IMG/VR virus record: IMGVR_UViG_3300045999_003247
Coordinates: 1-62,477 of that record
DNA length: 62,477 nt
Strand: one strand, 5' to 3'
Source: a virus
Taxonomy: Duplodnaviria; Caudoviricetes
The notes beneath the pieces were generated by a model, which did not search any database, was not told the DNA's origin, and worked only from the letters and a program-made list of their open reading frames with translations. Both the position numbers and the translations under genes were made by a program. Shown one piece after another: positions 18,421 through 53,112 of this stretch; within the stretch, counting starts at the first letter, position 1; each line of letters starts with the position of its first letter.

Positions 18421-21400
18421 TCGCGTCGTTCGGGAAGAGCTGCTGAAGCATCAGCCGGCTGGTTGATGCTTGCGGCGCGCCACCCGGAGCAGGGGCCGGA
18501 GCAGCGCCACCGCCACCGCCCTGCATTGGAGCCATCCCCGGAACACCTCCGCGGGTTGACGGAGCGGTTGGAAGGGGTCTTGGATAGAGAACCTGTTCCC
18601 TTGTCCGTGCGGTTTCTTCGCTTTCCAGTAGACTGGTTGCAGGAGTGGTGAGGCGTATCGGAACAATGGCCCCCATCGAAGAAAGCATGTCGGCTACCTC
18701 GCGGTAGGCGTTCAGCTTTTCCTGCTGTGTCTTCCCACGTTGCAACATGAGTCGCATACGGTTAGGGTCCGCAGCAACTTCCTTCACCGTCGCCAGTGCG
18801 TTCATGCGCGGCAACTTGTTGAAAAGTTCCTGCGCGGTCTTCGCCAGCGCACCTGCCGCAGCAAGAGATCCCGGGCCTTCTGGTATGGCCCCAGACCCAA
18901 AATGCAGTGCGGCAAAACGAACTGCAAATTCGTCTATCGGTGACCCTACGCCCATTAACGAATTAAGTGCCTCACCGTTCTGGATTGCTTGCTGCGCGCG
19001 TGAGATAGGACGAATAAACCGGAGAATGTTTGCAACTTCTTCTCGGGTCATCAGACCCTGCGAACGGAGCATCTGAACAACCGACTGCTTTCCGGCTGAG
19101 ATGGGGGTGAACAGCTTGTCGCGGAATACTGCAGTGTTGAAACCGTTTGGACCACCAAGTGCTTGTTGGTATGCCCAGTCATACACCGCGCTTTTTAGGC
19201 CCCCAATCGCCAGTTCCGGATTATCCGAAGATCTTGCAACGTCAACCAGTCTTGAGAAGTCCCTGAACGGGTTCGGGTTGTTTTTTCGTAATGCACTGTC
19301 TACGGCAAGAATGGGCTTTTCACCCGCGGCAAGAACAGAAGTTAACGCCGCCGCTTTTTCCACCTCCTGAGCAGAGAGACTGTTTCGGTCCCGAACGGTG
19401 TTAAGCGCATTCTGGGCTTCTACTGCGTTAGTGAGATCGTTGCGAAGTTCTGGGAACTCGTTCAGCGCAGGATTCCTCGCGGCCCATGCGTTAATCTCGT
19501 TGATCTTAACTTCGCCGGTCGTCGGATTCACAAACCGCGGATCGGTAAGTATGCCTCTAAGGATTTTGTGAGTGGCATCCGTAACAGAAAGAACACGGTC
19601 TGCCGAGGCCTGTGCGAGGTCCGCGGACCTTACTTCAAACCTCGGATCTCCTACTAGCACGTCAGGAGCGCCGCTGAATTCCCTTGAAAAAAGTCCTACG
19701 GCGTCTTTGACGTCTTCAAAACGGGATGCGACGATGTCAGGACTGCCTCTTACCATGGATGCAACGGCAATCTCTGGAGAAAGGGCATCCTTGCCTGTCT
19801 TATCAGCAGCAGTCAGTGTGCGAGCGTAGCTGCGCTTGAAGTTGTCGTTCAGCGCCCTAGAAAACATCCGTGCCGTGTCATACGCGTCTGTGTTTATTTG
19901 GTCAAAATCGGACAGAATTGAGTTAGCTATTCTGCCGAACATCCTAGCGTCAGTGGCCGATGTTTGTGCTGTCCCTGCCGCGCTATCCCTTGCGTTGTCC
20001 AAAAACTTGGTGCGGATGTTGTATAGATCGGAGATATTTACAGGCTTTCCAAGAGGCAGATAGGTAACATCCCCTGTTTGCGGGTCTATCACCCTTCCAC
20101 TGCTTAGGTACTCCTCTGGTACAACCCCAGTTCTAACGCGTTCGGCGGAGTTCTGTCCTTGTCGATACAGGTCTACTGCAAAATCATTGATCCCAAGCTC
20201 ACCGAGTTGTTTTTGCATCCAAGACGGGAGGTCGCCTATGTCTTTGGTTGTTAGTTCTTCCAACACAGAAATAAGCGTGTTTCGCGGTACTACAGTCTTG
20301 GGGACTGCAGTCTCAAGCCTTCCCCCTGCCGATGGAGCAGTCGGAACGCGTTTCCCTGTTGCAAGTTCCCGTGTAAGTTGTCCGATATCAATCGGCTCTA
20401 GGTCAAAGGACTGACGATATGCGATTTCGTACAGTGCCCGTTCATATCTACGAAGGTCGGAAAGGGCCGCAAATGCGTTGGTCTTTAACGTTTCACCGAT
20501 GTCTGCCCTAGAGCCCGCCTGCCCTGCTATAAACGCAGATATAGACTGCTCTTGTGCCTCTGCAGTACGGCCTTTACCCGTGGCCAGCCGTGCTACTGCA
20601 TCCGCAACATTTCTTTCTGCTTGACCAATCCTAGCTTGGATCATGTCATCGAACAGGACCTGTTGCAGCTTCGCGGCTTCTGTCAAAAGTGCGGGATCTC
20701 CCGTTTCTTTTAGCCGAGAGATGAGGAGCTTAGATGCGGCGATCGCGTCTTGCCCCTGCCTTTGCACCTGCGCGCCATATGCAGAGTCGCCACGAACAAG
20801 TGTGTTCTCAAGAATCGCAAGAACAGAGTCCCCAGTAGCCTGCGCTGCGGTCGGAGAAGCCCCTGTTGGAGGAACCTGCGAGAGCGAACGAATCGTATTC
20901 CTGTACCAACGGTCCCTCAAAAGAGTTGCAGCTCTGGCGGCCTCCTTGTCTCCGTTAGCCGCCATCTCTTCCAACGTGCGGATCTGCGGTGTTTGAGACA
21001 AGATCGTATCAAGTGTCTGAAACAGCTCTCGTGCAGCACGTTCTTCCGTGCGCCCGCCCTTGAACTGTTGAATCAGATTGGTGACCGTGTTTTTGGCAGA
21101 ATTCAAGCCGTAGAGCAGCATTGATCCGGGTAAAAACCCGGCACCTAATTCTGCAGCAAAACGAGTGCGAGCATCCCCGGGGTCATACGCTTCTGCTACC
21201 CCACCAGCGGTGCCGATAACTCCAGCCGAAAGTGCTTCTGATGGGTAAAACACCCGTGGCGCCTGTCTGGCCGTTTGTCCTCCGGTGCGAAGAGCCCCGT
21301 AGACCATGTTCATGATGCGCCCACCGACGCGCTCGGGAATATCCTTCAGGAATCGTATTGCGGCTGACCCACCCAAGACGCCGCCCATGGTTTCGCCTGC

Positions 21401-21904
21401 CACACGGTACGGCATTGCCGCTTGCGAACTTACTGGAAGCGATTCTCCGACAAGATCAGACAGCGGGTCTGACGCGAGGTAAGCAACAGTTCCTGCCGTA
21501 CCCGCGGCAATGAAGGGAAGCAGTTTTGCTCCGGGAATAGGTATGTTTGCAAAAGGTGCGGTAGCGCTAAATGCCCGTGCAGCCGCAATGCTGGTTGGAG
21601 CAGCCTGTACAAGTTCTTCCGCAGCGCCAAATGCCACCTGTGCGGCGGCTTCGTTAGGCGTTACTTGTGGGACGATGCCGGGAAATTGTCGTTCTAACTC
21701 GCTGAAGTTTGACGTCTTTCGGGCTGCGTCTGATGCTTGTTGCTTTGAAAGCACAAACAGCCCAGATGGGCCCATTCCCATTGTGGCGAGGTACTGCCCC
21801 TGCCAGCCTGACGCAGGCGGTGTTGTTTCTGGCGTGGGCGGTACTTCCCCGTCAAAACGCATTCCGGGGAACTGTTCCTTAGCTCTGTTAGTAAAGTCGC
21901 TCAC
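18380..21904 (-). CDS. Large internal virion / ejection protein (1174 aa)
   Basis: Last gene of the four-gene internal-protein block; helical, with Gly/Ala hydrophobic segments. Confidence 0.6.
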   Translation of the reverse strand: MSDFTNRAKEQFPGMRFDGEVPPTPETTPPASGWQGQYLATMGMGPSGLFVLSKQQASDAARKTSNFSELERQFPGIVPQVTPNEAAAQVAFGAAEELVQAAPTSIAAARAFSATAPFANIPIPGAKLLPFIAAGTAGTVAYLASDPLSDLVGESLPVSSQAAMPYRVAGETMGGVLGGSAAIRFLKDIPERVGGRIMNMVYGALRTGGQTARQAPRVFYPSEALSAGVIGTAGGVAEAYDPGDARTRFAAELGAGFLPGSMLLYGLNSAKNTVTNLIQQFKGGRTEERAARELFQTLDTILSQTPQIRTLEEMAANGDKEAARAATLLRDRWYRNTIRSLSQVPPTGASPTAAQATGDSVLAILENTLVRGDSAYGAQVQRQGQDAIAASKLLISRLKETGDPALLTEAAKLQQVLFDDMIQARIGQAERNVADAVARLATGKGRTAEAQEQSISAFIAGQAGSRADIGETLKTNAFAALSDLRRYERALYEIAYRQSFDLEPIDIGQLTRELATGKRVPTAPSAGGRLETAVPKTVVPRNTLISVLEELTTKDIGDLPSWMQKQLGELGINDFAVDLYRQGQNSAERVRTGVVPEEYLSSGRVIDPQTGDVTYLPLGKPVNISDLYNIRTKFLDNARDSAAGTAQTSATDARMFGRIANSILSDFDQINTDAYDTARMFSRALNDNFKRSYARTLTAADKTGKDALSPEIAVASMVRGSPDIVASRFEDVKDAVGLFSREFSGAPDVLVGDPRFEVRSADLAQASADRVLSVTDATHKILRGILTDPRFVNPTTGEVKINEINAWAARNPALNEFPELRNDLTNAVEAQNALNTVRDRNSLSAQEVEKAAALTSVLAAGEKPILAVDSALRKNNPNPFRDFSRLVDVARSSDNPELAIGGLKSAVYDWAYQQALGGPNGFNTAVFRDKLFTPISAGKQSVVQMLRSQGLMTREEVANILRFIRPISRAQQAIQNGEALNSLMGVGSPIDEFAVRFAALHFGSGAIPEGPGSLAAAGALAKTAQELFNKLPRMNALATVKEVAADPNRMRLMLQRGKTQQEKLNAYREVADMLSSMGAIVPIRLTTPATSLLESEETARTREQVLYPRPLPTAPSTRGGVPGMAPMQGGGGGAAPAPAPGGAPQASTSRLMLQQLFPNDAIMGAAALQTALPS

Positions 21905-21917
21905 GCGAGCCCCTCTG

Positions 21918-23936
21918 TTATGGCTGTGCCAACGCGGGTTTGACCTGTGGGGTCAAATTACCCTCTTGATCCATGAGCAAAAACACCGTTCCGGAAGGAG
22001 CACTTGCCCACTTTCCCTGACTTTGTGGGTCATTCAAGAACAGCCGTCTGTTTTGAACCCCAATTACCTCTCGTGCCCTTTGCAGTTTTGACAATCTAAG
22101 TTTAGCGAGATTCCGGTCTTTTCTGGCTAGATCAGTGTTTTCGGCTTCATCCGCTGCCGCTCCCTGTAACGACTCTATCGCACGGTCTACCCCGTCTAAC
22201 GCGGCGTAGTACGAAGGCGTGTTAGAAAACAAACGCTGGTCAATAGAGGACAGTCGATCTCGTATGCCCTCAAACTCACGCACAGAGTAATCAGCTTTTC
22301 CAGTAAAGATACCCGTTAGTTGCTGGACCATGAGTGGAAGCGTTTGCGTTGCAGATTGTAGGTCAGGGCGGATCGTTCCTGCGACATCTGCTGGAATGTT
22401 TCTTACAACACCGGAAAGCGCCGTTGGAACGAAACCGGTTCCCTTTTCTGCAAGACTCAGTAGGGTAGCGGGTTCAGAACTTTCCACCCTGTTTACCGTA
22501 TCTACACTTGGAGGGACCTGAAACGCGTCTAGTGGTACAGTTCCTTGGGGCACTGCCTCCGGCGGAGCCGCAGTTGCCGCCGATGCTCCTTGGGCCCGAG
22601 CGGACATCGCGTCTTTCAACATCGGCAGATTTTCTGCCATGCCCGGTATGGTTACAGTATCCCCATTTTCATCTATGGTCGTTACGGGCTTGCTCAAAAG
22701 AGCATTTGCCGCCTGCACCAGAGCAGTCTCGTCTTCAGTAGTCTCGCCGCGCGCGTACCTATTGAGAAGTTCGGAGTTTGTGACAGTGTCATATGCCCAA
22801 CGCGGGCCTAAGCCCCCGCCGTACTTACTACCCGCTGCTATATTCGCCGCATCTATCCGCGTTCTTGCGGCCAAATCAGCGCGTTCATTCGCGCCTTGCT
22901 CTCGAACGGCAGCCATAAGGATATCGGTCTGCTCTGATTGGAGCCGTGCGTTGTAGTCACGGATCTCGTTTTGCTCTTTCTCGCTTGCTTCAAGCGCATA
23001 CAGAGAAAGCTGCCGACGGGTGTCTTGGATGTCCGATACGCGCTTCTGGATAGCTGCAGGAAGCGCACTGAACGCTGCTGCAAAACGACCTAAGCCGTCG
23101 CCAGATAGCGCTTCTCCGCCCGGGCCGCGGTTCGCGGCGTACCCAAGTGCTGCACCTGCAATGTCGAACAGGATGTTTGCCTTGGCGGACTGCTGGCTGG
23201 GCGCAAGGCCAAGCTCTTCATACTGCGCCATGCGCCTTTGCATCGCGTCGCCAATGGAAATCTCTGCTTTTGGCTTCCCGAGGTTAGTCAAAAGATCCTC
23301 AAACGGAGAAGAAGGCATTTGAGTTGCAGACGGGGTCACGCCTTCTTCATCTGACCCGTCTCTAAAACGTTGTACGAAGCCTCCATCCCGCATTTGGATC
23401 GGCGGCATACCTTCCGGCGGAATCGGCTGGCCATTCGGCCCCATCATCGCGCCACCGGGTGCCATACCGCCCCCGGGGGCTGGGGTAGCAGCAGCGAGCA
23501 GCGCTGCCATGTCACCGCCCGAGGGGGCAGGCGGGGCCGGTTGTGGCGGCATCCCCATCTCACCCCCGGGGGGCGGCGGCATCGGGGCCTGCGGTCCCTG
23601 AGCCATGGGCCCTGATTGGGGGAGCGCCCCAAGTCCAGCACCCTGCGCGAGGACCGGCTGCAGCATTGCGAGCACCGAGTCCGGCGTCTCTGCAGCGGCC
23701 TTGTACCCTACGAGGTCAGCAAGCTCTTCGCGGCGCGCGTCAACTGAGCGCATGTCGCCACGGAGGTTGTTCATGAGGATTTCTGGGGAATCCGGTTTCC
23801 GGTCGAGCATGCGAGCGGAGGAACCCTCGTCAGAGTCTTCCTCTTCTTCCATCTCATCTTCGTCTTCTCGGGCTTTGTCGAGAAAGCCCTGCATGATTCC
23901 GACGTTTTCAACGTCGTCCATCATCTTGCCTCTCAT
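21918..23936 (-). CDS. Putative internal virion / ejection protein (672 aa)
   Basis: Position; Pro/Met-rich linker; MRDGGFV motif. Confidence 0.55.
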   Translation of the reverse strand: MRGKMMDDVENVGIMQGFLDKAREDEDEMEEEEDSDEGSSARMLDRKPDSPEILMNNLRGDMRSVDARREELADLVGYKAAAETPDSVLAMLQPVLAQGAGLGALPQSGPMAQGPQAPMPPPPGGEMGMPPQPAPPAPSGGDMAALLAAATPAPGGGMAPGGAMMGPNGQPIPPEGMPPIQMRDGGFVQRFRDGSDEEGVTPSATQMPSSPFEDLLTNLGKPKAEISIGDAMQRRMAQYEELGLAPSQQSAKANILFDIAGAALGYAANRGPGGEALSGDGLGRFAAAFSALPAAIQKRVSDIQDTRRQLSLYALEASEKEQNEIRDYNARLQSEQTDILMAAVREQGANERADLAARTRIDAANIAAGSKYGGGLGPRWAYDTVTNSELLNRYARGETTEDETALVQAANALLSKPVTTIDENGDTVTIPGMAENLPMLKDAMSARAQGASAATAAPPEAVPQGTVPLDAFQVPPSVDTVNRVESSEPATLLSLAEKGTGFVPTALSGVVRNIPADVAGTIRPDLQSATQTLPLMVQQLTGIFTGKADYSVREFEGIRDRLSSIDQRLFSNTPSYYAALDGVDRAIESLQGAAADEAENTDLARKDRNLAKLRLSKLQRAREVIGVQNRRLFLNDPQSQGKWASAPSGTVFLLMDQEGNLTPQVKPALAQP

Positions 23937-23957
23937 TCGATGTTTTCTCGCTTCTCG

Positions 23958-26957
23958 TTAAATTCCGGCGGCTTTCGCGCCAGCATACGCCGTCAGTCCG
24001 GCCAATCCGATACCCGCCGCCTGCTGGAAGGGGCTGGGGCCTGCCTGACTTGCGGCTGCGGTGGACATCTGCGTGGACGGCGCGCCGCGGTAGATGTCGG
24101 ACAGGAACGATGCCTGCTGGTACGGAGCGTACAGCCGCTGCAGTTGCGTGGCGCGTGTTGCGTCGAGCGTCTGCTGGTTGTACGCCTGCTGCGCTTGGCC
24201 GACGTTGTAGAGCATGTTGATGTCGGCCTGTTGCATGCCCTGTGCTGCCTGACCGACGCCCAGTTGCTGCAGTCCCATCTGGCCGTACTGCTGCCCCAAC
24301 GCACCAAGGCCCTGCGACATCTGCTGGCCAATCCCGAACTGCTGTCCTGCCAGTGCACCGATGCCTTGACCGATGTTCTGGAACTGGCCGGCCTGCTGGC
24401 CGTAGATCGCGGCCAGTGCTTGCGCAGCGTCCGTTCTCTGGCCTGCTTGCTGTGCGAGCAGGTTGGCGATGTTCTGCTGGATGCCTGACTCTTGCCCCGC
24501 GACCGCCGCCTGCTGTGCGGCGAGATTGCCATACCCTTGCGCGGCTTGCTGGTAGATGTTCGCGGCGCTTTGGCCCAGTTGAGCCTGCTGCACGCCCAGT
24601 TGCCCGAGCCCTTGGCCGGCGGCAACGACGTTCTGTGCAAGGTTCCCGTAGAGGCCTGCGGCACCTTGGCCGAGCTGTGCCTGCTGAACCGCTTGCTGGC
24701 CGGCCACTTGGCCGATGTTCGCGAGCTGTGCTGCGGCGGCCTGTTCGGCTGCTGCGCGCTGCGATTCCATCGAGCCGAGCGTCTGACCTGCCTGTACGCC
24801 GAGTGCGCCCTGCTGTGCTGCGAGCTGGGCGGCCTGTTGGCCAAGCTGTCCTTGCTGTACGCCGGCTCCAATCGCACCGGTGCCCGCGCCCTGCAGCATC
24901 TGTGCTGCTTGCTGGCCGAGCTGTGCCTGCTGCGTCCCTGCGCCAATCTGGCCAATGCCGACCTGCCGAAGCATGTCTGCGGCCTGCTGACGCATCTGCG
25001 CTTGCGTAAGGCCGTATTGCCCTTGCAGGGCTTGGTTGGCGAGTGCCGCCTGCTGCGCGAACTGTGCGTTCTGCTGCGAGGAGGTCAGACCTGCTTGTTG
25101 GTTGGCCAGTGCGGCCTGAAGTGCCGCTTGCTGGTTCATGCCCTGCGCCTGCAAGCGGTTCGCTTCGTTCTGTACGTTCGCCTGCTGCTGGGAGGACATG
25201 TTTGCCAGCGCCGTTTGCAGGTTCGACTGCACGCCAAGCTGTTGTACGCCAAGCTGCGACGCAAGGTTCTGCTGTCCAACAGTAAGGCCGGCTTGCTGGT
25301 TCGCTAGAGCGGCTTGCATTGCCTGCTCCGCAGACATGCCTTGTGCCTGCAGTTGCGCAGCTTGGTTCTGCACGTTGGCCTGCTGTAAGGACGACAGGTT
25401 CGCCAGTGCTGTCTGAAGGCCCGTCTGCGTGCCCAACTGCTGGACACCCAACTGCGAGGCAAGGTTCTGCTGGCCTACCGTGAGGCCTGCCTGCTGGTTT
25501 GCCTGTTGCGCCGCAAGACCGGCTTGCTGCTCTACGTTGAACTGCTGCTGCGCTTGGCCGTAGGCTTCTTGCAGCCCTCTGGCACGTATATCTGCCTGCA
25601 GTTGTGAAAGGTTTCGAGCGGCTTCCGCTTCTACAACGCCTTCTCGCTCGCCGCCGAATGCGCCTGTCCTGACCGCCTGTGCGGCCCGCGCTTGCCGTGC
25701 AATCTCGTCAGCGCGCTGCGCCTCTCGGACCTGCGTGTTGACGACTTCCTGCATGTACGGAGACATGTACTGCTGGATAGCGCCCGGAGCGGTAATGGTG
25801 CCCGTCGAAACGCGTTCTGCCGGACCCATTTGATAGGTCTGCAGGTCGGGTCGGAACCCTGTCTGTGCTGCCGCCATTTGCGGGGTGATGATTTCACGCC
25901 CAGATACCCGCTCCGCAGCGCCCATTTGATAGGCCTGCAAGCCGGTAGGCGCTGCGGCTTGCGCGGCTTGGATAGTGCCTGTGCCAACCTGCTGTGCCCC
26001 GACCATGGGCGCCGCGCCCATTTGAGCGGCCTGTGCCGTGGGCGCTGCTCCGAAGTTCGCGGCCTGTGCTGCCTGCTGCGCGGCAAGCTGCTGTGTGGCA
26101 ATACCCTGCGCGAACTCAGGACGCATAGCGGCTTCTTGTGCCTGCTGTGCGCCTTGGAACAGTGCGCCGATACCCTGCTGGATGGCAGGCTGTCCCGCTG
26201 CCTGCTGTGCCGCCAGAGCGGCTTGTTGGCCTGTGGTCAGGCCCTGTGCAATCGCCTGCTGTGCGCCGCCAAGTTGCGGTACGCCTTGTTGCGCTGCGGC
26301 ACGAAGTCCTGCCGCTTGAAGCATCTGCTGCGAGCCGGTGAAGTCCGCCCCAGCCGCCTGCGCGGCCATGCGCTGGGCGTCGGACAGTCCGAGAATGCCT
26401 TGCCCCATGGTCGTAGTGGCTGGCTGCAGGTCCGCTTGGGACGAGCGTGCCGCCATGTTCTGTGCGGTCGCAAGCGCGTTAACGCCCGTTCCAATGTCTT
26501 GATAGGAACCGGTGAGTCGATTCGTAACGTCAGCTGCCAGCGCTCGCTGGCCTGCAAGGTCAAGGTAGCCAAGACCGGTGTTGATTTGCCCTACACCGCC
26601 GGCCATCCCCGCTGCCGCAGCACCGGCCTGCCCCATCGCGCTCTGTGCGCCAGCAAACTGCTGTCGAGTATCCGCCGCACGCAGGAGGTCTGCCGCTTCC
26701 TTTGTAGTACCCATGCCCCCAGCAAGCGCTTCGTTGGCAGAGGTGACATAGGGCATATACGCGCCAACGCCCTGCTGCTCTGCCGCACGCATCGCGGCGA
26801 CTTGAGCAGGGGAGAACCCGGCGACCTGATACCCGGGGAGCTGATCTGCAAATCCCGGTTGAAAGGCCAGATTTCGAGCTTGCTGCAGAAGCTGCAGCTT
26901 ATACGCCTCGATCTCCGGCGCTTCACGTATGATTTGCTGTTGTACGGCGTCTGCCAT
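23958..26957 (-). CDS. Gln/Ala/Gly-rich DNA-transfer (pilot-like) protein (999 aa)
   Basis: Q/A/G-rich 11-mer and 18-mer periodicity; YMSPY..V and GAFGG.R motifs; hydrophobic C-terminus. Confidence 0.6.
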   Translation of the reverse strand: MADAVQQQIIREAPEIEAYKLQLLQQARNLAFQPGFADQLPGYQVAGFSPAQVAAMRAAEQQGVGAYMPYVTSANEALAGGMGTTKEAADLLRAADTRQQFAGAQSAMGQAGAAAAGMAGGVGQINTGLGYLDLAGQRALAADVTNRLTGSYQDIGTGVNALATAQNMAARSSQADLQPATTTMGQGILGLSDAQRMAAQAAGADFTGSQQMLQAAGLRAAAQQGVPQLGGAQQAIAQGLTTGQQAALAAQQAAGQPAIQQGIGALFQGAQQAQEAAMRPEFAQGIATQQLAAQQAAQAANFGAAPTAQAAQMGAAPMVGAQQVGTGTIQAAQAAAPTGLQAYQMGAAERVSGREIITPQMAAAQTGFRPDLQTYQMGPAERVSTGTITAPGAIQQYMSPYMQEVVNTQVREAQRADEIARQARAAQAVRTGAFGGEREGVVEAEAARNLSQLQADIRARGLQEAYGQAQQQFNVEQQAGLAAQQANQQAGLTVGQQNLASQLGVQQLGTQTGLQTALANLSSLQQANVQNQAAQLQAQGMSAEQAMQAALANQQAGLTVGQQNLASQLGVQQLGVQSNLQTALANMSSQQQANVQNEANRLQAQGMNQQAALQAALANQQAGLTSSQQNAQFAQQAALANQALQGQYGLTQAQMRQQAADMLRQVGIGQIGAGTQQAQLGQQAAQMLQGAGTGAIGAGVQQGQLGQQAAQLAAQQGALGVQAGQTLGSMESQRAAAEQAAAAQLANIGQVAGQQAVQQAQLGQGAAGLYGNLAQNVVAAGQGLGQLGVQQAQLGQSAANIYQQAAQGYGNLAAQQAAVAGQESGIQQNIANLLAQQAGQRTDAAQALAAIYGQQAGQFQNIGQGIGALAGQQFGIGQQMSQGLGALGQQYGQMGLQQLGVGQAAQGMQQADINMLYNVGQAQQAYNQQTLDATRATQLQRLYAPYQQASFLSDIYRGAPSTQMSTAAASQAGPSPFQQAAGIGLAGLTAYAGAKAAGI

Positions 26958-26984
26958 GTTATTTTCCGCTAGTTAGCCCGTAGG

Positions 26985-29027
26985 TCAGCCGACCTTTCCG
27001 CCCTCAAGCATTTTCATCAGCTTATACATGCGCCGCGCGCCCTTGCGGCGGCTCCCACCACCTGCGTTACGCACGGCTCTGGCCGTCATCACAAACTCAC
27101 CGTCCGACAGCATCGCAGGGATGGAGTCAGAAGTCCCGGTCCCCGGGCCGTTGATCGGACCCGTCTTTCTCGGGAAATGCGTCTCGCCGCCCTGCTTGAA
27201 CGGGCGTGGTGCCATCGGATTAACGGCACCGCCCTGTGCATAGGTCCGCGGCACTTGGTACATGCCGGGGAGGTTATACGGCTGTGGGATACCGCCCGGC
27301 ATGTTGGTGATCGCGCCTTGCGGCACGTTGTACGTGGGCACCTGCGGCGCCGTCTGCGGCATAGGCACCGTGAACAAAGGGATCTGCCCTGCGTCCGCGT
27401 TTGCGCCTTGAAGGCCGTAGGACGGGGTTTGGACTACGGGGTTATACGGTTGCAGCGTTGCAGGCTGCAGCGATCCGGTAAAGAGCTGCGGGTTGTCCCG
27501 GATGTAGTCCTCGCCCGTGTACGAGCTTTCGTACAGGGGGTTTGCCGCAACTTCTTCTTGCTGGAACCCGCCAGTGGCAGCAGACAGCCCCAGTCCGGTG
27601 GCCACGGCAGGCGCGTAGCGCAGCAAAGAGCCTTGAGCTGCGTTTGGGTTGACGAGGAAAGCGTCCTTGAACCCTGCAAACGTAGGGGAAGCGCCGCCGG
27701 GGGCGAGTGATTTTACGAAGTCCCCTGCTCGACTAAAGAACGTGCTTTGTCCGCCGGCGGGGGGAGCGCCCGCCGTGGGGGCCGCCCCACCAGTGCCCGG
27801 AGCCGCCGCCTCCGCTTGAGGAGTAAAACGTGCGCCTTGCGGGGCTTCATTATAGGCATACGACCGTGGCCCGGTAGGCGGCTGCCCGGCTGGGGCAGCA
27901 GTGCGCGCGTTTTGGTATGCCGTTTTGGCGCCAACCGCAACGCCAGCAACAAGGCCTGCCGTAGCGGCTTCTTTGGGCTTCATGCCGCCGAGAATGCCGG
28001 TCCCCGCGGTAGCTACGCCGGTTCCAACGCCCTGTGCAAGTGCCCCTGTAGCGCTTCTTCCAAGCAAAGATCCAACCTGACCCGCAACGGCTTGACTTGG
28101 ATTGAATCCGCCGATTCCGCCACCACCACCGAAATAACCCATTGCGCCTGATACAAGGGCGTCCTTTAGGCTTCCGCCACCCGCCAGAGTGACGGCGCCG
28201 GCGGCAATTCCGGCAGTAGCCGCAGTGCCTAGACCCGCTATCGCTCCCCCAAGTGACCCTCCGATTGCAGTTCCTATGCCCGGCAGCGCAACCGTCAACC
28301 CCACAGTAGCCAAAACACGGCCAATCGGGCTTTTAAGGACCTTCTTTACGGTGTCTTTTACTTTCTTAAAAGCATTTTTAACGCCGCCGACCACCTTTTT
28401 CAAAAAGAACTCAGGCAGCCCCGTATCAGGGTTGATCGTCCCAGATCCGCCCATGCGCCGGAGCATCGCCGCTTCTTGCGGCGTAATGTGCGCCAGCAGG
28501 GTGTCCCCACGCCGGCCCTTCGACGCCAGATATTGCGCCATGTCGGCAAGGCCGCCACGTGCCATCTCCATCGGAGGCAATCCTGCTACCGTAGGAGACA
28601 CCTCCATCGCAGCGTTAGCGTTGCTGGACAGAGTGCTTAGGTACTCATTGATCGCCATCAGCGCAATGCCGATGAATGCCGGATCGTATTCTTCCGGCAA
28701 GTCATCGGCTTCCATCATGTCGCTGTCGATCAACTGCTGACGGATGCGCGGGTAGTCCGAAGGACTGTTGGCAAGGTACTCAAAAACATCAATAAGATCA
28801 GCGGCTTCTGTCGCCGTCAGATCCAAGTCTGCAATGCTTTCCCGGACGGCCTGACGTACAGCAGCCGCTTGATTAGGGTCGTTCGTCGAAAGACCAAGCG
28901 CGGTCAGCGCGGCGTCATACGTGTCCGCACTGGAGACGTAAACCGGCTCTTGCTGTGCGCCCTGCGGGGCTGGAGGAGCCTGCATGCCCTGCATATCAGG
29001 CAGGGACATGATGCCTTCATTTGCCAT
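26985..29027 (-). CDS. Putative internal virion / ejection protein
   Basis: GDTLLAHI...GGSGTINPDTGLPEF module; Gly/Ala membrane-like segment; GPGTGTSDSIPAMLSDGEFV motif. Confidence 0.6.
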   Translation of the reverse strand: MANEGIMSLPDMQGMQAPPAPQGAQQEPVYVSSADTYDAALTALGLSTNDPNQAAAVRQAVRESIADLDLTATEAADLIDVFEYLANSPSDYPRIRQQLIDSDMMEADDLPEEYDPAFIGIALMAINEYLSTLSSNANAAMEVSPTVAGLPPMEMARGGLADMAQYLASKGRRGDTLLAHITPQEAAMLRRMGGSGTINPDTGLPEFFLKKVVGGVKNAFKKVKDTVKKVLKSPIGRVLATVGLTVALPGIGTAIGGSLGGAIAGLGTAATAGIAAGAVTLAGGGSLKDALVSGAMGYFGGGGGIGGFNPSQAVAGQVGSLLGRSATGALAQGVGTGVATAGTGILGGMKPKEAATAGLVAGVAVGAKTAYQNARTAAPAGQPPTGPRSYAYNEAPQGARFTPQAEAAAPGTGGAAPTAGAPPAGGQSTFFSRAGDFVKSLAPGGASPTFAGFKDAFLVNPNAAQGSLLRYAPAVATGLGLSAATGGFQQEEVAANPLYESSYTGEDYIRDNPQLFTGSLQPATLQPYNPVVQTPSYGLQGANADAGQIPLFTVPMPQTAPQVPTYNVPQGAITNMPGGIPQPYNLPGMYQVPRTYAQGGAVNPMAPRPFKQGGETHFPRKTGPINGPGTGTSDSIPAMLSDGEFVMTARAVRNAGGGSRRKGARRMYKLMKMLEGGKVG

Positions 29028-29131
29028 GGTGGTCCTTTCCTTGTTCTGCCATAGGCCCGGCATGCGGGCCGCGCGTCGGGAAAGGACGCGAAGATGGCTC
29101 GATTATGATGGATGTCGTCACAGCCTGTCTA
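29028..29131 (-). promoter_or_regulatory. Structured 5' leader (candidate translational switch) and possible promoter
   Basis: Two perfect 6-bp hairpins closed by a 5-bp stem; 9-nt anti-SD; TAGACA-N18-CATAAT upstream. Confidence 0.55.
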
Positions 29132-29444
29132 CTTCAAGGTAGGACAGGTAGAAATTCACTGCAGCAGCACTGGAAGTCACCCGAAGATTGTCTCCACTCT
29201 CAAGGACACACGGGATTCCGCTAAACACGTCAAACGTGCCGTTAACCTCAAGTGGCCTATTTTTCTGCAGGTAATACGTGGTCCCTGTTCCAGTATGCGT
29301 GACTGTGACCTGAGAAGTAGCAGTGCCGTTGTTCGTGACCCGCAAAGAACGGACAACGGCTGAGTTTGCCTCTGGCACCGTATAGATGGTTGTCTCGGTT
29401 GCGGCAGAGGGGATAAGGACTTTTCTGAAATACTTATTGGCCAT
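29118..29444 (-). CDS. Small beta-rich virion protein
   Basis: TIYTVP...RVTN...LESGD.L pattern; late-gene context. Confidence 0.6.
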   Translation of the reverse strand: MANKYFRKVLIPSAATETTIYTVPEANSAVVRSLRVTNNGTATSQVTVTHTGTGTTYYLQKNRPLEVNGTFDVFSGIPCVLESGDNLRVTSSAAAVNFYLSYLEVDRL

Positions 29445-29452
29445 GTCCGCCT

Positions 29453-30862
29453 CTACTCTGTCAGGTCATAGAACGTGAGTGACCCGACCGCGTCCCCAGT
29501 GGTTGCACCAGAAACCGTGCGAATAGCAATAGTGTAGACATCGCTAGTGCCGGCAATAGAAACGCCCAACTGCAAGTCAAAGTTGTACGCATTTGAGAAG
29601 CTGGTGTTCTGCGTCCCACCAGAGCCAGATGACGTCACATAATCCGTTTGAACAATCGTCCCGCCCGTTATCGCCGTGGCTGCGACGTCATACTCCACAT
29701 TCGCGTCCGAAGGCACCGTAGCCGCCCATGTCGCACTAGTCAGCGTGGGGTTTTTGACCAGCGCTACTTCGTAGTTCTGACTGGTTGTTGGGAGCACCTG
29801 AACGCGGTTGGGCAGCACTATCGCTCCCGTCCTACCCGAGGCTAGGCGGATAGACACCAAGGGCAGGAAGGTCGTTCCGATAGTGCCTAGAATTGTTGTC
29901 CTTCGTGCAATGTGGTCAACCGACGTCTGCTGGAACCCCCCCTCTGATACGACAGTGCAGCAGATCGCCTTCATAGAGGCAGCAACCGCCGACGTGGTGC
30001 TCGTAATCTCGTAGCGAACCGGCAGGATTGCCGTGGTCATGTAGACGTTGGCAATGTCGTTAGCGTTGTTGAAGGTGTGGCAGACAATGTACTCACCATT
30101 AATGATGAACCCACACCGTACCGACCCAACCCCAAGCCACTCAAAATCCATCCAAAGGATCTGAGCCTTAGACGGGTCCAGCACCAGCCCTGAAGGGCCA
30201 GTGCCGTCGAGCTTGTCGCCGTTCCAAGAAGACTGGCTAACGGCCCGGGAGTCGCTGACGCTGCCCGTCACGTAGCTCCGCAGGACAAAGGAGTTCGTTG
30301 ACCCCGTCCTCTTAAAGAACACCCCGTTCTGCGCGTTGTAATAGCCCACCTGCTGCGTCAAGTTTGCGCTGGTACTGCTGTCCATCACAAAGGTGGCAAG
30401 TACAAGCAGCCCTTTACCCGGCTGGTACGGGAAAGAACGGTACGACTGGCGAATTACGGAGCCCACCCCGCCAGAGGTGACCTCCATCTTGACCGCCGCT
30501 TCGTTGGACAAGAACGTCGTCGTCCCCGTGCCGGTGGTGGATACGTCGAACTGATTGTCCGCGGCGTATCTGTTCTGACTGTCGAACAACGTGTAAGGCT
30601 CACTTACACGCTGCCGGCCAAACGCGTCAAGCGACGTCGGCGGAAATGAAATTGGATTCGGAAGACCGTTTGTGTCCATGCCGCCCCCGCCGTCCCCGTA
30701 CCAAGCATATGCCGAGTCTTTGTTCTCGGTAACCACAGGGGAATACGTGCTGTTAAGCTGAAAAATGACCTGTTCAAGCGAACGTACAAGCTGGTCGAAC
30801 TGCTCCGGGCTGTACATCGTCGCCGCAGCGTTCGGCAGACGGACGTTGAGTATCTTACTCAT
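29453..30862 (-). CDS. Virion-associated protein with DAFGR-type beta-sandwich domain
   Basis: Short helical N-terminus, Gly linker, then DAFGRQRVS, YQPGK and MDFEWLGVG motifs. Confidence 0.55.
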   Translation of the reverse strand: MSKILNVRLPNAAATMYSPEQFDQLVRSLEQVIFQLNSTYSPVVTENKDSAYAWYGDGGGGMDTNGLPNPISFPPTSLDAFGRQRVSEPYTLFDSQNRYAADNQFDVSTTGTGTTTFLSNEAAVKMEVTSGGVGSVIRQSYRSFPYQPGKGLLVLATFVMDSSTSANLTQQVGYYNAQNGVFFKRTGSTNSFVLRSYVTGSVSDSRAVSQSSWNGDKLDGTGPSGLVLDPSKAQILWMDFEWLGVGSVRCGFIINGEYIVCHTFNNANDIANVYMTTAILPVRYEITSTTSAVAASMKAICCTVVSEGGFQQTSVDHIARRTTILGTIGTTFLPLVSIRLASGRTGAIVLPNRVQVLPTTSQNYEVALVKNPTLTSATWAATVPSDANVEYDVAATAITGGTIVQTDYVTSSGSGGTQNTSFSNAYNFDLQLGVSIAGTSDVYTIAIRTVSGATTGDAVGSLTFYDLTE

Positions 30863-32712
30863 CTTAGGCCGTCAGGCTGGATGTCGACCCGCATGGTGCC
30901 GAAGCGCCAGTTGGACCCAACCCCGTCGCTCGCAACACGAAGACTGATCTGCCTCCCGCGCGCCCGAGTGTCCACTTTCTCCGTGTTCGGAGAAATCACA
31001 TACGGGTCAAGAGAACTCGGCACCGCAGATCCCTGCGGATACGGACGAAGCAGCAGGTGCACCGTCAGGTTCTCGCTCTGATCCTTGAAGTCAGGGATAA
31101 ACCGACGCATGTACATCATCTCGTCGCCGTCCCCAATGTCAAAGTAGCCAGATGTGATGTACGAGGGGATTGGATCGGTTACGGCGTTCACGCCGTCTTC
31201 GTGGTTGTACAAGCGTGATCGACCTGCCGTTACCCCGTAAATGGTCGAGATCGTCGCCTCAGTTGAAGTCGGATCATAGTCCATAGCCACGGGCTTATCG
31301 TAAGTGCCAAGATCCTGCCACGTAGTTCTCGATAACGTGCCGACCGACCAGACGCCTTCAAGGTAGTTGTAGGTGACGAAGCGATTGATGTAGTTTTGCC
31401 CGAGAGAGCAGTACCACCACGTTACCTCATTAAACTGTGTGTTGATGCCGACGTGCGTCTTAGCGGACTCTACGATGTTCATGTCCTTAAACACGTAGTC
31501 CTGCACCGTGCACGGCATCTTCTTCACCGTACCGTCAAACACGTAGAACGCGTCCTTACTCATCCAATAGGACACGCCATTCACATCCGCCGAAGCGTGC
31601 GGGCCAATGCACCCGCAGTTGGCGCCCAACTGCTGGAAGCCAAAGGTGTACGGCGGCCCGACATACTGCATGCCATGCAAGGACGTGTCCGTCCAGATCA
31701 AAATCTGACCACGAGAACGAAGCGCCGTTATGACCTCGTTGCCATCCGTGAGCCGTTGTCCACCCGCCGTGTTTGTAGCCGTTGCGGCGAACTCCTGCAG
31801 GTTCTCTTGACTGGAGAACCGCACATACATCGGATCCTGAGTGCTCGGCGTGCCAATCGTAGACTCCGTGCCAAAGCAAACCAAGTGCCGGTCAGGCGTT
31901 GAGACCAGCGCATAACGGCTCTTTGTGGGGGCGTTAGGGATTACCGCAGCACGCGTGTTGATGCCCGCAGACAAATCCCAGCGGTAAATTCCGCCGTTAA
32001 CGAGCTGGAGAATCAGGTCTTCGCCGAAGTTGTCAAACTGCCATACACGAGAACTTAACGACAATGCGGAAGACTGTGGGCGTGCCGTGCCCCACGTAGA
32101 CGCACTCCAAGTTCCAGTGCCCCATCCAAAGTCAAAATAACTAACATCCGTTCCAGTGTTGATCTGGTACGCCGCAGTTGCACTGCCAGCAGTGGAAACA
32201 GTGCTTGAGGCTTGCGTAGGGGACTGAATGCGGTAAGAACTTCCAGAAATAACCTCTAGGATCTCAAACTCGTTTTGTAAGCTGGCGTTGGTAATGCCCC
32301 CGGGGTTCCCTGTGACGCTGGAGAACGTAACGAAGTCCCCGACAATGGCCCCGTGATTAAAGTCATTCACCACGACATTCGTAGAGCCGGAAGTGGTGTT
32401 AAACGTGACTCCGGTTTCGGTGGCGCGAATCGGCGTGATGTCCGCCCAAATTCCACCGTAGAAAACATAGACCTTTCGTGTGGTGCCAATAGCAAGAGCG
32501 GGTGAGCCCGCTAGATCGTTCCACGTGAACACCTCACTGGCCATACCAAGAAAATACTCGGCAGACTCATTGAAGTTCGTCCATCCGCCCAGCTTCTCAG
32601 GAAGCCCGTACCGAAAGCGGATGTAATCGCCGTCGATCCAGCCGCCTTCCGCACCGTACTCGGTGTTCTGTTTGTCGATGCCCGGCTTCAGAAATAACCG
32701 CAAGAGAGGCAT
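30859..32712 (-). CDS. Tail nozzle / DNA stabilisation protein (P22 gp10 / T7 gp12-like)
   Basis: 617-aa beta-rich protein; RF..G.PEK.GG start; YVRFS motif; podovirus position. Confidence 0.65.
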   Translation of the reverse strand: MPLLRLFLKPGIDKQNTEYGAEGGWIDGDYIRFRYGLPEKLGGWTNFNESAEYFLGMASEVFTWNDLAGSPALAIGTTRKVYVFYGGIWADITPIRATETGVTFNTTSGSTNVVVNDFNHGAIVGDFVTFSSVTGNPGGITNASLQNEFEILEVISGSSYRIQSPTQASSTVSTAGSATAAYQINTGTDVSYFDFGWGTGTWSASTWGTARPQSSALSLSSRVWQFDNFGEDLILQLVNGGIYRWDLSAGINTRAAVIPNAPTKSRYALVSTPDRHLVCFGTESTIGTPSTQDPMYVRFSSQENLQEFAATATNTAGGQRLTDGNEVITALRSRGQILIWTDTSLHGMQYVGPPYTFGFQQLGANCGCIGPHASADVNGVSYWMSKDAFYVFDGTVKKMPCTVQDYVFKDMNIVESAKTHVGINTQFNEVTWWYCSLGQNYINRFVTYNYLEGVWSVGTLSRTTWQDLGTYDKPVAMDYDPTSTEATISTIYGVTAGRSRLYNHEDGVNAVTDPIPSYITSGYFDIGDGDEMMYMRRFIPDFKDQSENLTVHLLLRPYPQGSAVPSSLDPYVISPNTEKVDTRARGRQISLRVASDGVGSNWRFGTMRVDIQPDGLR

Positions 32713-32727
32713 TGCCGTGCCGCCGCG

Positions 32728-32901
32728 TCAGGTCTTCTTGCTGCGCGAGCCGCGGGCCGCGCGCATGTTGTCGACAAGATTGGGGTACGGACGACCCGCC
32801 TTCTTTGCCATCTTCTTGGCAGAAGCCTTCTTGGCCGCCGTAAGTGCTTCCGGCTTACCGAGTTTAGCAGGGCGCTTTTTATCCCAGACAGGTTCTTTCA
32901 T
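32728..32901 (-). CDS. Small Lys-rich protein (57 aa; not in the ORF track)
   Basis: MKEPVWDKKRP...AKKAGRPYPNLVDNMRAA; GAGGT SD. Confidence 0.7.
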   Translation of the reverse strand: MKEPVWDKKRPAKLGKPEALTAAKKASAKKMAKKAGRPYPNLVDNMRAARGSRSKKT

Positions 32902-32948
32902 ACGCCACCTCTACTTAGTAATCCTTGACGAGCACGTTCGGCGTGCAC

Positions 32949-35045
32949 CTATTGTAGGAAGATCAGAAAGTTTCCACCAGAACCGAATTGCCAGCCCGTA
33001 TTCCCCCCAAGGTTTACACTGTTTAGACCCGCGCGCCAAGACGCCCCGCCTGTCGCGGTGCTGTTTTGAATCTGCACGTAATCCACGCTAACCGACCCGC
33101 TAGACTTAGACAGCGTTGCGGGGGAGGTAGACGAGGAGTTTATTGTTACAGGGTTGCCCAACGTACCGTTTACGTTGAAATCAGTGACTGTTTGCGTTGT
33201 GCCTGCTGTGAACGTAAAGGTTGTGGGCTGTACGCCGTTAGCAATAGTCGTAAATGTGTTACTTCCAGTGACGATGAGTGCCCCTGCACCGTCGTTAGAT
33301 AGCGTGCAGTTATATGTCGCCCCGCCTCCCGCAAAAATCTTTGCGGCAACCCCTGTCATGCTTATCTTTCCCGTTCCGGTTCCCGCTGTTGTTGTAAAGT
33401 TTGGCGCAACAAGAGCAGAGCATGTGAACACGGAAACTGTGGGGGACTCACCTGTAACAGTAAGTGTTCCCCCGTTAAACGTCAGGTTTTTATTTACAAC
33501 ACTTCCGACTGTGTTGCCCACAAAAAACTGAAGGCAGCTCAGTGTTTTTCCGTTAAGGTCCGCTGTCCCCTCAAGTAGATATGCCTGCCTCGTCGTAGAT
33601 AAAGCGTCTAGAGGCTTGAACGTGTTAGATAAGAAGTATAAGATGGTCCCAAAAGAAACCCCGTTAGATGTTACGTTCTGGGTCTTTCTTCCAGAAAACC
33701 CAATACTGCCTCCAGCTTGAGACAACACCACGCCGGTACCGGTCTTCCAGTCTCCGTGAACGGAAAAAGCAGAGTTAACCGCAAACGTCATGGCGGTTGT
33801 TCGGCCAGACAGGTCTATGCTTCCAAAATTAAAAGTAGCACTGGTGGATACCGTGCCCGCCGCTCCCGTGTTATCAAAAACAGCAGTGTCTTGCGCAAGG
33901 GGGAAATTATCCACGGCAGGCGTTCCTCCAGAGGACAGCGCCCAGCCTGTGTTTTGGATGTTTCTTACACCACTTAAGTTCCAATAGACAGTTTTTGCCG
34001 CAGGGAACGTTATGCCAGAATTTCCACCGCAATCTCCTGCGCGTAGGGGAGAGGCAGGAGAGGCCGCGCCAGAAAGCGTAATGTCTCTAAAGTCACAGTT
34101 ATTAGCAGCAATTGCAGCGGCTGTTATTGTCCTAGAAGTCCTGCGAGCGCTTGAATAAACAGCGTTTCTGGATATGGCCGAGGCCCCGCTTATGGATAAA
34201 GTGCCGTTTACTGTCTGGTTATCGTAAAGGACTATTGATTTTACGCTAACGCTGGTAGCCGACACGGTTAGATTATTGAAGGTGTTTTGTCCGCTTATGC
34301 GGATGTCACCTGTTTCGGTGCCCGAGCCCGCGTTAGATGTATTAGAAAGGTTATAAAAAGTAACCCCTGACCCCCCGTGTATGGCCAGATACAAGCCAGA
34401 CGACAAGTTTCCTGATGCTGAGACAGAGGACGTCCCCGCAAGAAACGTCAGGTTCGTTGATGTGGAAAAATCAATAGGCCTAGTCGGCGCTCCAGTAAAT
34501 GAAGTGCTTGAAAGTGAAACCGTAGAACTTCCTAACGATATGGTCCTAGCATTGGAGTTGCTTGACGATATGGCTCCTTGCGACAGGCTATAGTTATTAG
34601 TTGTAAAAGTCCCACGTGTGACGGTCAGCAGCCCTCCGCTGCCCAACATCGCATCGCCAAGGGAAACTGTTATCCCAATTCCGTCTATCGTTACATATGG
34701 TAGTGATTTTCCAGCGGAGATCAGTGTTGAGTCGGCTGTTATGGTGACTGTTCCGAAGTAGTTCATCACCATAGTAGAAGCTAGGGTGATGTTCCCCGCG
34801 ACGGTGATCGCGCCTGTTGACGATGTAGCCAGAGTCCCTGTGAACCCCGTAAAAGTTATGCTTTTTGCACCCGTATTTGAGGGATCAATAGAAACGGTAA
34901 CTGCACCGCTGTTTGCGTCTATGAAAACGTCATCGGCAGTCGTTGGAACAGAAGCGCCTCCCGCTCCACCGGAAGTAGTCGACCACTTGGTCCCCGCCGT
35001 TCCGTCCCAATTAGCGGTGCCGCCAACCCAATAACGGTTAGCCAT
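32949..35045 (-). CDS. Tail-associated beta-helix protein (possible receptor-binding protein)
   Basis: RYWVGG..W...W...SGG...P...D.V.F motif, repeated internally; T/S/G-rich. Confidence 0.65.
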   Translation of the reverse strand: MANRYWVGGTANWDGTAGTKWSTTSGGAGGASVPTTADDVFIDANSGAVTVSIDPSNTGAKSITFTGFTGTLATSSTGAITVAGNITLASTMVMNYFGTVTITADSTLISAGKSLPYVTIDGIGITVSLGDAMLGSGGLLTVTRGTFTTNNYSLSQGAISSSNSNARTISLGSSTVSLSSTSFTGAPTRPIDFSTSTNLTFLAGTSSVSASGNLSSGLYLAIHGGSGVTFYNLSNTSNAGSGTETGDIRISGQNTFNNLTVSATSVSVKSIVLYDNQTVNGTLSISGASAISRNAVYSSARRTSRTITAAAIAANNCDFRDITLSGAASPASPLRAGDCGGNSGITFPAAKTVYWNLSGVRNIQNTGWALSSGGTPAVDNFPLAQDTAVFDNTGAAGTVSTSATFNFGSIDLSGRTTAMTFAVNSAFSVHGDWKTGTGVVLSQAGGSIGFSGRKTQNVTSNGVSFGTILYFLSNTFKPLDALSTTRQAYLLEGTADLNGKTLSCLQFFVGNTVGSVVNKNLTFNGGTLTVTGESPTVSVFTCSALVAPNFTTTAGTGTGKISMTGVAAKIFAGGGATYNCTLSNDGAGALIVTGSNTFTTIANGVQPTTFTFTAGTTQTVTDFNVNGTLGNPVTINSSSTSPATLSKSSGSVSVDYVQIQNSTATGGASWRAGLNSVNLGGNTGWQFGSGGNFLIFLQ

Positions 35046-35292
35046 CTATGATCCCCGGCTCTGGATTCGGCTCGGGCAATGGCTCGGGCAATGGCTCGGG
35101 CAATGGCTCGGGCAATGGCTCGGGCTCTGGAAGGATTATTGGATTCTCAATGTTGTAAACCCAACTTGTGACCCGTTCTAGTTTCATCTCTTCAATGACC
35201 TCCTGCGGAGGCAAAGGCTGATCCTCTGGGAAGTACAGCGCGTCACGGTATGTCCCGTACTGGGTTTCAGCTTCAAAGGTTATCTTTATCAT
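35038..35292 (-). CDS. Small protein with PEPL repeats (fibre chaperone-like position)
   Basis: Tandem 12-bp repeats at ~35069-35124. Confidence 0.6.
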   Translation of the reverse strand: MIKITFEAETQYGTYRDALYFPEDQPLPPQEVIEEMKLERVTSWVYNIENPIILPEPEPLPEPLPEPLPEPLPEPNPEPGIIDG

Positions 35293-35294
35293 TG

Positions 35295-53062: not shown

Positions 53063-53112
53063 GGGCGGCAATCCTACTTATTTGCTACGCTTTTTGCTAG
53101 CGTGTGGAGGTT

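Follow-up and report, generated by a model that had tools for sequence, protein, structure and literature searches.

Stem-loops at the 5′ terminus that stabilise an mRNA, such as that of the ompA leader, are established. In the leader of the MS2 maturation gene an upstream complement is described as pairing with a 7-nt Shine-Dalgarno (SD) sequence across a multi-arm junction, whilst a metastable hairpin delays this pairing and thereby limits translation to nascent RNA (PMC4615214). Read-through RNA of the T4 genes e, soc, 49 and I-TevI is described as having its initiation regions sequestered, with the late promoter inside the inhibitory structure (PMC3014915), and the put element of HK022 is described in review as a double-hairpin RNA of ~65 nt which acts in cis on the polymerase (PMC8632103). 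Little of the structured cis-regulatory RNA in uncultured phages has been charted. Here we analyse a leader on the minus strand of the virus record IMGVR_UViG_3300045999_003247 (Duplodnaviria; Caudoviricetes), the whole 62,477 nt of which we refer to as the window; the leader lies between the gene of a 108-aa protein (p108) and that of a 680-aa protein (p680).

The leader is a real RNA family from an uncultured freshwater phage lineage, undescribed within Rfam and the literature searched: a short element with more than 100 natural variants, a three-way junction supported by covariation and a built-in promoter. In the large main clade, to which the window belongs, we give an even chance to the reading that it acts in cis and occludes the p680 ribosome-binding site by means of the loop of its first hairpin. 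The 90-nt spacer between the p108 stop and the p680 AUG holds most of its parts, which are given here in the order of the RNA, 5′ to 3′:

29118–29444, minus strand: p108, upstream gene (open reading frame, 108 aa), stop codon UGA at 29120–29118, the last codons overlapping the −35-like hexamer
29126–29131, minus strand: −35-like hexamer TAGACA
29102–29107, minus strand: −10-like hexamer CATAAT, after an 18-nt spacer
29095, minus strand: predicted transcription start, an A, the 7th nt past the −10, placed by sigma-70 rules
29094–29098, minus strand: 5′ strand of the closing stem P1, GCCAU, mostly upstream of the predicted start and so on read-through RNA only; CUU follows, before hairpin 1
29072–29090, minus strand: hairpin 1, CGCGUC-CUUUCCC-GACGCG, with its loop at 29084–29078
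29079–29087, minus strand: anti-SD GUCCUUUCC, three stem and six loop nucleotides of hairpin 1
29071, minus strand: C, the only nucleotide at the junction of hairpins 1 and 2, kept both by the main clade and by divergent groups
29054–29070, minus strand: hairpin 2, GGCCCG-CAUGC-CGGGCC, its sequence drifting in relatives with the structure kept; a U follows
29048–29052, minus strand: 3′ strand of P1, AUGGC
29041–29047, minus strand: unpaired A-rich linker AGAACAA, variable in relatives and still A-rich
29032–29040, minus strand: SD region GGAAAGGAC, with an invariant core GGAAAGG, followed by CACC and the AUG
26985–29027, minus strand: p680, downstream gene (680 aa, putatively virion- or tape-measure-like), AUG at 29027–29025

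A sequence-only reading of this stretch had pointed out the stems, the 9-nt complementarity and the promoter-like hexamers, and all of these were confirmed on the minus strand: GUCCUUUCC is the exact complement of GGAAAGGAC. Dinucleotide shuffling produced a perfect complement of at least 9 nt, linking the 17-nt initiation region with the 77 nt upstream of it, in 3 of 5000 trials, and one of at least 7 nt in 63. The folding energy of the leader is unremarkable (−36.5 kcal/mol, z = −1.74, 8 of 200 shuffles as stable). It is conservation in relatives, rather than single-genome statistics, that makes these features convincing.

The layout is like that described for the maturation (A-protein) gene of MS2 and other Levivirus, where the gene of a low-copy virion protein has its SD paired by an upstream complement enclosing other arms (PMC4615214). 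There a local hairpin first holds the complement; the counterparts in the phage leader would be hairpin 1, which includes the anti-SD, and hairpin 2 as the arm enclosed, and folding likewise predicts that the closed form is the more stable. The differences are also clear: the present phage has a double-stranded DNA (dsDNA) genome and its RNA would come from a DNA-dependent polymerase at the adjacent promoter, a hairpin loop carries the anti-SD whereas the MS2 complement is described as lying next to a hairpin, and the MS2 long-distance helix is reported with covariation, mutational and probing support (PMC4615214), whereas that of the phage leader is predicted from its sequence, with 0 of 9 pairs covarying. 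The two leaders have no sequence or Rfam relationship.

Conservation of the leader

Relatives were collected along two routes. The 469-aa virion structural protein encoded in the window has at least 596 relatives in IMG/VR, and the best 80 of these were used to gather loci, giving 81 in all; 19 of the 81 carry p108 followed by a p680 homologue, with a spacer of comparable length in all 19 and a letter-identical hairpin 1 in 18. A scan with the hairpin 1 sequence returned at least 120 IMG/VR stretches, and 91 of 92 distinct flanked copies possessed the full architecture; the odd one (L120) was set aside as a chance match in coding DNA. These 91 distinct full leaders, chosen on the hairpin 1 sequence alone, together with the covariation of all three helices, bear out the earlier proposal of a structured leader and show that it is conserved. 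The identity of the flanking proteins among relatives drops to 32–67% for the p680 N-terminus and 63–79% for p108. The window itself holds one copy of hairpin 1, both by pattern count and by covariance model search.

No leader was present in any of 15 inspected loci without p108, in which the next gene begins 10–45 nt past the stop codon of the 469-aa gene with an ordinary SD. As the promoter and leader were found only alongside p108, the three look like one inserted or deleted module. The loci noted in this comparison are L017–L023, L034–L037, L043, L054, L069, L076, L077 and L080. A cmscan search of Rfam over positions 28500–29700, on both strands and with E-values up to 10, gave no match in the leader; two weak matches outside it (29474–29518 on the plus strand, 28603–28643 on the minus strand) fell far under the gathering score. 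The 13-nt core sequence of the leader was not found in the literature searched.

With the SD omitted, the full three-way junction appeared in 72 of 89 distinct leaders and hairpin 1 in 84 of 89. A covariance model of the three-way junction was built from the 89 sequences, and two sets of loci were aligned to it: set A, collected by p108 (70 hits from 82 sources, 37 distinct rows), and set B, collected by pattern together with divergent loci (97 hits from 100 sources, 94 distinct rows). Fitting to the model favours its structure in both sets, and the invariance of hairpin 1 in set B partly reflects how this set was assembled, mostly by matching the hairpin 1 sequence. In set A, 11 of 17 pairs changed on both sides and 85.8% of cells were paired, against 25–51% in slid controls; in set B the figures were 14 of 17 and 86.1%, against 28–55%, and in each set 0 of 500 shuffles matched. 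By helix, set B gave changes on both sides in 6 of 6 pairs of P1 (72.1% of cells paired), 3 of 6 pairs of hairpin 1 (99.6%) and 5 of 5 pairs of hairpin 2 (86.1%). The compensatory changes in hairpin 1 come from divergent groups, with stems such as CGCAUC/GAUGCG, CACGUC/GGCGUG and CAUGC/GCAUG. One hairpin 1 pair is U.G in 62 of 94 rows and U-A in 30, and G.U occurs at several positions, therefore only RNA of the coding strand fits. Covariation thus supports a three-way junction on coding-strand RNA; this part of the sequence-only reading stood, although the junction is not the minimum-energy fold, which is the form with the SD sequestered.

Conservation of unpaired nucleotides is confined to the hairpin 1 loop and the SD, which are each other's complements, and to the one junction C; J1/2 and J3/1 vary. 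In many relatives GCCAA or GGCAA stands in place of GCCAU and pairs with the strand 3′ of hairpin 2. A second pairing had been suggested for GCCAU, with the AUGGC at the p680 start codon, and these replacements show that it is not conserved.

Promoter and the two transcripts

All 91 distinct leaders carry the pattern [T/A]NGACA-N17/18-NAT[A/T]AT at 11–13 nt 5′ of hairpin 1. The −35 hexamer is TGGACA in 66, TAGACA in 23 and ATGACA in 2, the −10 hexamer CATAAT in 47, GATAAT in 42 and CATTAT and TATAAT in one each, and the spacer between them is 18 nt in 90 leaders and 17 nt in one. Taken by itself, the promoter match in the window is not significant (4 sites against 7.4 ± 2.9 in shuffles), and a GACA-N17-19-NATAAT pattern turned up in 27 of 100 shuffles. 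A subgroup of relatives (L003–L008, L015, L331–L347 and L359–L398, at the junction after p108) has a 20-nt insertion between the p108 stop and the −10: here the −35 copy within the last p108 codons (GTGGACA) has decayed, and a replacement GTGGACA stands outside the coding region, exactly 18 nt 5′ of the −10. The spacing is rigid across otherwise free sequence, which therefore indicates a site that acts at the level of DNA, and the paired hexamers point to a conserved sigma-70-type promoter between p108 and p680.

Sigma-70 promoters usually start transcription 7–8 nt after the −10. An A at the 8th nucleotide past the −10, with a C before it, is present in 75 of 91 leaders, and in the window we infer a start at A29095, inside the closing stem P1, where the sequence-only reading had also put it from the TAGACA-N18-CATAAT match. 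P1 covaries at 3–6 nt past the −10, upstream of the predicted start, and would therefore form solely on read-through RNA from p108. The predicted start lies upstream of the anti-SD (29087–29079) and trims P1 only. The suggestion that the two transcript types fold differently thus holds for P1 and fails for the anti-SD, which both RNAs contain.

A promoter within the 5′ strand of a conserved helix, so that RNAs from upstream and from the local promoter differ, and an SD paired by an upstream segment are both features described for the T4 genes (PMC3014915). The T4 promoter transcript is described as lacking the inhibitory strand and as well translated (PMC3014915), whereas the anti-SD of the present leader is downstream of the predicted start and on both RNAs, with predicted occlusion alike: averaged over the 91 leaders, the SD is unpaired with a probability of 0.09 if the RNA begins just past the −10 and of 0.06 if it begins at the predicted start.

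Pairing between the hairpin 1 loop and the SD

The anti-SD loop proposed by the sequence-only reading is invariant together with the SD throughout the main clade: a 7-nt core is fixed on both sides, loop and SD, in 91 of 91 distinct leaders. The SD side was free to vary in this comparison, as the leaders had been selected by hairpin 1 only, and GGAAAGG stayed fixed in all of them while P1, hairpin 2 and the linker varied. In the same loci the initiation region of p108 drifts (31 distinct pairs). The window contains 9 copies of GGAAAGG, where 8.8 would be expected, and the p680 copy alone is at a start; action of the loop in trans on other genes was rejected on these counts.

Nearest-neighbour folding predicts the SD to be nearly always paired. 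The minimum-energy fold is the SD-sequestered form, and in 86 of 91 minimum-energy structures the helix between anti-SD and SD displaces hairpin 1, the two being mutually exclusive in nested folds (the helix has 7–9 bp). The p680 initiation region ranks as the second most occluded of 56 in the window, by a crude gene call. On read-through RNA the closed form is at −32.5 kcal/mol and the best SD-free form at −26.0 kcal/mol; on the promoter transcript the values are −27.2 and −23.8 kcal/mol. Docking of the SD on the loop (6 bp) would yield about −5.5 kcal/mol and invasion of the stem (7–9 bp) −8.8 to −13.4 kcal/mol. The barrier on the direct path from open to closed was estimated at 12–15 kcal/mol by a model unable to use the loop as a toehold, and hairpin 1 could therefore serve as a temporary trap. 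From these folds and the joint invariance we infer that a loop-SD helix forms in vivo and that translation of p680 is lowered.

Five IMG/VR scans for an altered loop between the same stems returned 63 stretches: 54 were chance matches in G+C-rich coding DNA and 9 were leaders, whose loop is CUUUCUU in every case while the SD stays the same. One more variant, CUUUUCC, is known. All loop changes that are tolerated therefore turn C into U and keep a G.U pair with the SD; neither a U-to-C variant, which would break an A-U pair, nor a double change of loop and SD was found in the five scans. That loop variation is confined to C-to-U fits pairing and is weak evidence for it.

In the mechanism we propose, hairpin 1, the single C and hairpin 2 would fold locally, hairpin 1 first, and on read-through RNA from the upstream genes P1 would close the hairpins into the three-way junction. 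In the main clade hairpin 1 would display its invariant pyrimidine loop, CCUUUCC, the complement of the SD core. The SD would emerge ~45 nt later and dock on the loop as a loop-to-SD pseudoknot, or alternatively invade the stem and open hairpin 1 to give a long-distance helix of 7–9 bp. Either structure would block the ribosome-binding site and hold p680 translation low, with translation perhaps limited to fresh RNA, before the inhibitory helix forms. Should this be right, dsDNA phages too hide a ribosome site by an upstream complement, a logic known from MS2 and T4, and so adjust how much of a large virion protein is made, or when; the leader would also be a compact natural part (promoter, hairpins and masked SD) in which to study control by co-transcriptional folding.

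A more elaborate version, which we regard as doubtful, makes the leader a two-state gate: hairpin 1 would be a metastable trap that occupies the anti-SD so that only nascent RNA is translated, or a phage or host factor bound to the invariant hairpin 1 would pick the state, and the promoter in the closing stem would separate the handling of read-through and local RNA. If so, a kinetic or factor-controlled switch of the MS2-maturation type would serve a virion protein in a widespread lineage of uncultured freshwater phages.

Two further observations concern initiation at p680 and elsewhere in the window. A second in-frame AUG of p680 stands at codon 7, preceded by GAAGG at an SD-like distance, and, with the first SD masked, might be used for initiation instead. 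Two other predicted minus-strand starts, at 15855 and 16177, use GAAAGGAG-type SDs, which suggests that the 16S 3′ tail of the host extends as CCUCCUUUC; the hairpin 1 loop would then nearly mimic this tail.

Divergent relatives

Among 52 distinct junctions between p108 and the next gene, 32 have the exact hairpin 1, 15 a variant leader and 5 no leader. The 15 variant leaders have the same promoter, the two hairpins and the junction C, at a distance of 10–11 nt between the −10 and hairpin 1, with different hairpin 1 sequences: their loops are UUGUA, ACUUUAUUU, UCCC, UUCCC, AUCCUUCCAGA and CUUGC/CCUGC, and their SDs differ too. The anti-SD is lost in L321, L332, L335, L340 and L026, whose loop is now UUGUA or ACUUUAUUU. 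In the group like L321 a local 6-bp hairpin, UACUUU-UGA-AAGGUA, covers the SD, and this may be another way of masking the same site.

Several observations weigh against the occlusion of the p680 ribosome-binding site by the loop. In the variant leaders, duplexes between loop and initiation region reach −2.0 to −5.5 kcal/mol, no better than mismatched combinations (mean −4.1), against −15.9 kcal/mol in the main clade, and accessibility of the SD is ordinary (0.27–0.85); across the divergent groups there is no loop-SD covariation at the level of the motif. Within the main alignment, where covariation between loop and SD had been put forward as the check, compensatory change was seen at 0 of 9 pairs, and loop-SD cells were paired in 93.2% against 92.5% in shuffles, a value that 32 of 500 shuffles reach. 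The pairing therefore rests on joint invariance. The two nucleotides after the SD core (AC in 46 of 89 leaders, AT in 21, TA in 14, AA in 4 and TT in 4) can pair with the stem of hairpin 1 in 67 leaders only and cannot in 22, so the conserved core of the helix is 7 bp, CCUUUCC:GGAAAGG. Loop pairing by itself leaves the invariant stem of hairpin 1 unexplained, and it is not obviously a coherent design to join a promoter, which raises mRNA, to an element that holds down translation of the first gene. All public runs containing the stretch consist of contigs; the two labelled as possible RNA are probably DNA, and the two true RNA runs cover only short pieces at 29066–29289.

As the anti-SD is absent in divergent relatives that keep the promoter and both hairpins, masking is not the function of the whole double hairpin: it cannot be its role across the family, and the double hairpin must have, or once have had, another. 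Loop masking would be a trait of the large main clade.

Alternative roles

The conserved frame of promoter, hairpin 1, C and hairpin 2, kept in all groups even where the anti-SD is missing, could instead be a 5′ structural element for mRNA stability or processing, with the anti-SD a clade-specific addition or by-product. We think this somewhat improbable. On the promoter transcript the hairpins would stand ~4–6 nt from the 5′ end and block decay that depends on that end, and P1 would insulate the fold on read-through RNA, possibly beside a cleavage site rich in A and U; hairpin 1 keeps a fixed distance from the −10 both in the 91 leaders and in the divergent groups, and the operon downstream runs for ~10.7 kb of very long genes. 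A stable hairpin a few nucleotides from the predicted 5′ end is what the phage leader shares with stabilisers of the ompA type. These, however, need a stem rather than a particular sequence, and neither an invariant loop nor a matching SD, whereas hairpin 1 is conserved far better than hairpin 2, its loop changes only from C to U, the SD is invariant for no reason that stability supplies, and P1 covaries though it is upstream of the predicted start. Processing by RNase III at the leader was rejected as the helix is too short, and a small self-cleaving ribozyme as there was no Rfam match.

Invariance of both stem and loop over 91 distinct leaders, next to a drifting hairpin 2, is also what a site for a sequence-specific protein that sets p680 expression would show, and the element occurs once per genome and only alongside p108. 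Such a protein might be an RNA repressor or activator of phage or host, or less likely a DNA repressor on an inverted repeat at about +5 to +23. We consider this unlikely. The commonest repeat is an imperfect palindrome in DNA where the RNA has U.G (62 rows against 30), which speaks against a DNA operator, the invariance of the SD would need a separate reason, and no candidate regulator was found. The neighbouring p108 was dropped as an RNA-binding regulator: its AlphaFold model (pLDDT 88.6) is an all-beta, jelly-roll-like sandwich whose fold matches, all weak, are to capsid, pilus and fibre proteins, with no hint of RNA binding, and its sequence matches phrog_1276, of unknown function.

A single nucleotide separates the two stems of HK022 put. 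The leader likewise has two hairpins just 3′ of a conserved promoter and ahead of four very long genes, and nascent hairpins that bind their own RNA polymerase could carry it past Rho-dependent or intrinsic stops in the distal operon. We judge this very improbable. Promoter-proximal double-hairpin RNA in a phage operon is the likeness to put as reviewed (PMC8632103), but with 37 nt and plain stems of 5–6 bp the present double hairpin is about half the size of put as the review describes it, and the SD complementarity has no counterpart in put. Intrinsic terminator-like sites at 16000–35500 are at chance frequency (22 against 19.6 ± 4.4) and none is strong, which leaves no excess of such sites downstream; the covariation of P1 also implies a role on read-through RNA, and the invariance of anti-SD and SD is left unexplained. 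Nor is there an intrinsic terminator at the leader itself, where hairpin 2 precedes UAUGGCAG with no U run and the scan lists no site at 29054–29090. If the leader proves to be a stabiliser or an antiterminator, the family is still a new and testable phage RNA motif.

Hairpin loop, A-rich tail and purine tract loosely resemble small pseudoknot riboswitches, and the leader had been called riboswitch-like. A true sensor, either a small-ligand riboswitch or an RNA thermometer switching between the three-way junction with its SD free and the SD-paired form, would be served by two mutually exclusive folds of similar predicted energy (−26.0 against −32.5 and −23.8 against −27.2 kcal/mol), but is the least probable of these roles, as there is no Rfam family at E-values up to 10, no evident pocket (junctions other than the single C vary, and no unpaired nucleotides are conserved beyond it, the loop and the SD) and a gene context of virion structure rather than metabolism; ligand sensing is unsupported, and the leader does not look like a ligand-sensing riboswitch.

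Flanking genes and genomic context

The start of p680 was set at 29027, where tblastn alignments of relatives begin with its first residue. An ATG at 29063, the first of the open reading frame and the one used by the lister of reading frames, was rejected, being within the hairpin 2 loop and not conserved; gene callers that take the longest frame would prepend 12 false codons to p680 (from ATG 29061–29063) and so hide the leader. The first codons of p680, M-A-N-E-G-I-M (29007–29027, minus strand), are conserved at the nucleotide level. PHROG matches of p680 are weak, to the C-termini of tape-measure proteins plus one to an endolysin, no Pfam match and no PDB sequence match was obtained, and its neighbours in the atlas are viral hypothetical proteins. 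The name "ejection protein", given to this operon in the sequence-only reading, is for these reasons a guess, and the one annotated homologue is labelled otherwise (see below).

The virus record (62.5 kb) is complete by CheckV (100%), and nearly every gene is on the minus strand. Its other features are:

50741–53071, minus strand: portal-like protein
within the largely minus-strand gene set: a 1446-aa tail-fibre-like protein
within the same set: 617-aa and 469-aa "virion structural" proteins
minus strand: p108 and p680, then three more very long open reading frames
elsewhere in the same genome: primase, helicase and DNA polymerase genes

The 1174-aa protein at the end of the operon (18380–21904, minus strand) has a sub-threshold Pfam match to an RNase III N-terminal domain (E-value 0.008, 16.6 bits against a cut-off of 26.8), which is probably due to chance.

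Contigs of prokaryote genomes contain the hairpin 1 pattern in at least 120 stretches, and the leader architecture in 2 among the matches listed (L251 and L258). Both are contigs binned in bacterial metagenome-assembled genomes, one labelled Bifidobacterium, and contain the whole phage leader. Mis-binned phage DNA is more likely here than prophages, and no host can be inferred from these two contigs, which resemble phage DNA.

The sole named relative in the phage collection is DSL-LC04, with 64% DNA identity across 57% of a 1.5-kb query, in which the p680 homologue is labelled "tail tape measure protein" and the p108 homologue "hypothetical". DSL-LC04 is described as a metagenome-assembled lake phage, unplaced in known families and with a predicted host in the Pseudomonadota (PMC10611076). 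The public runs that contain the stretch are likewise lake and freshwater metagenomes.

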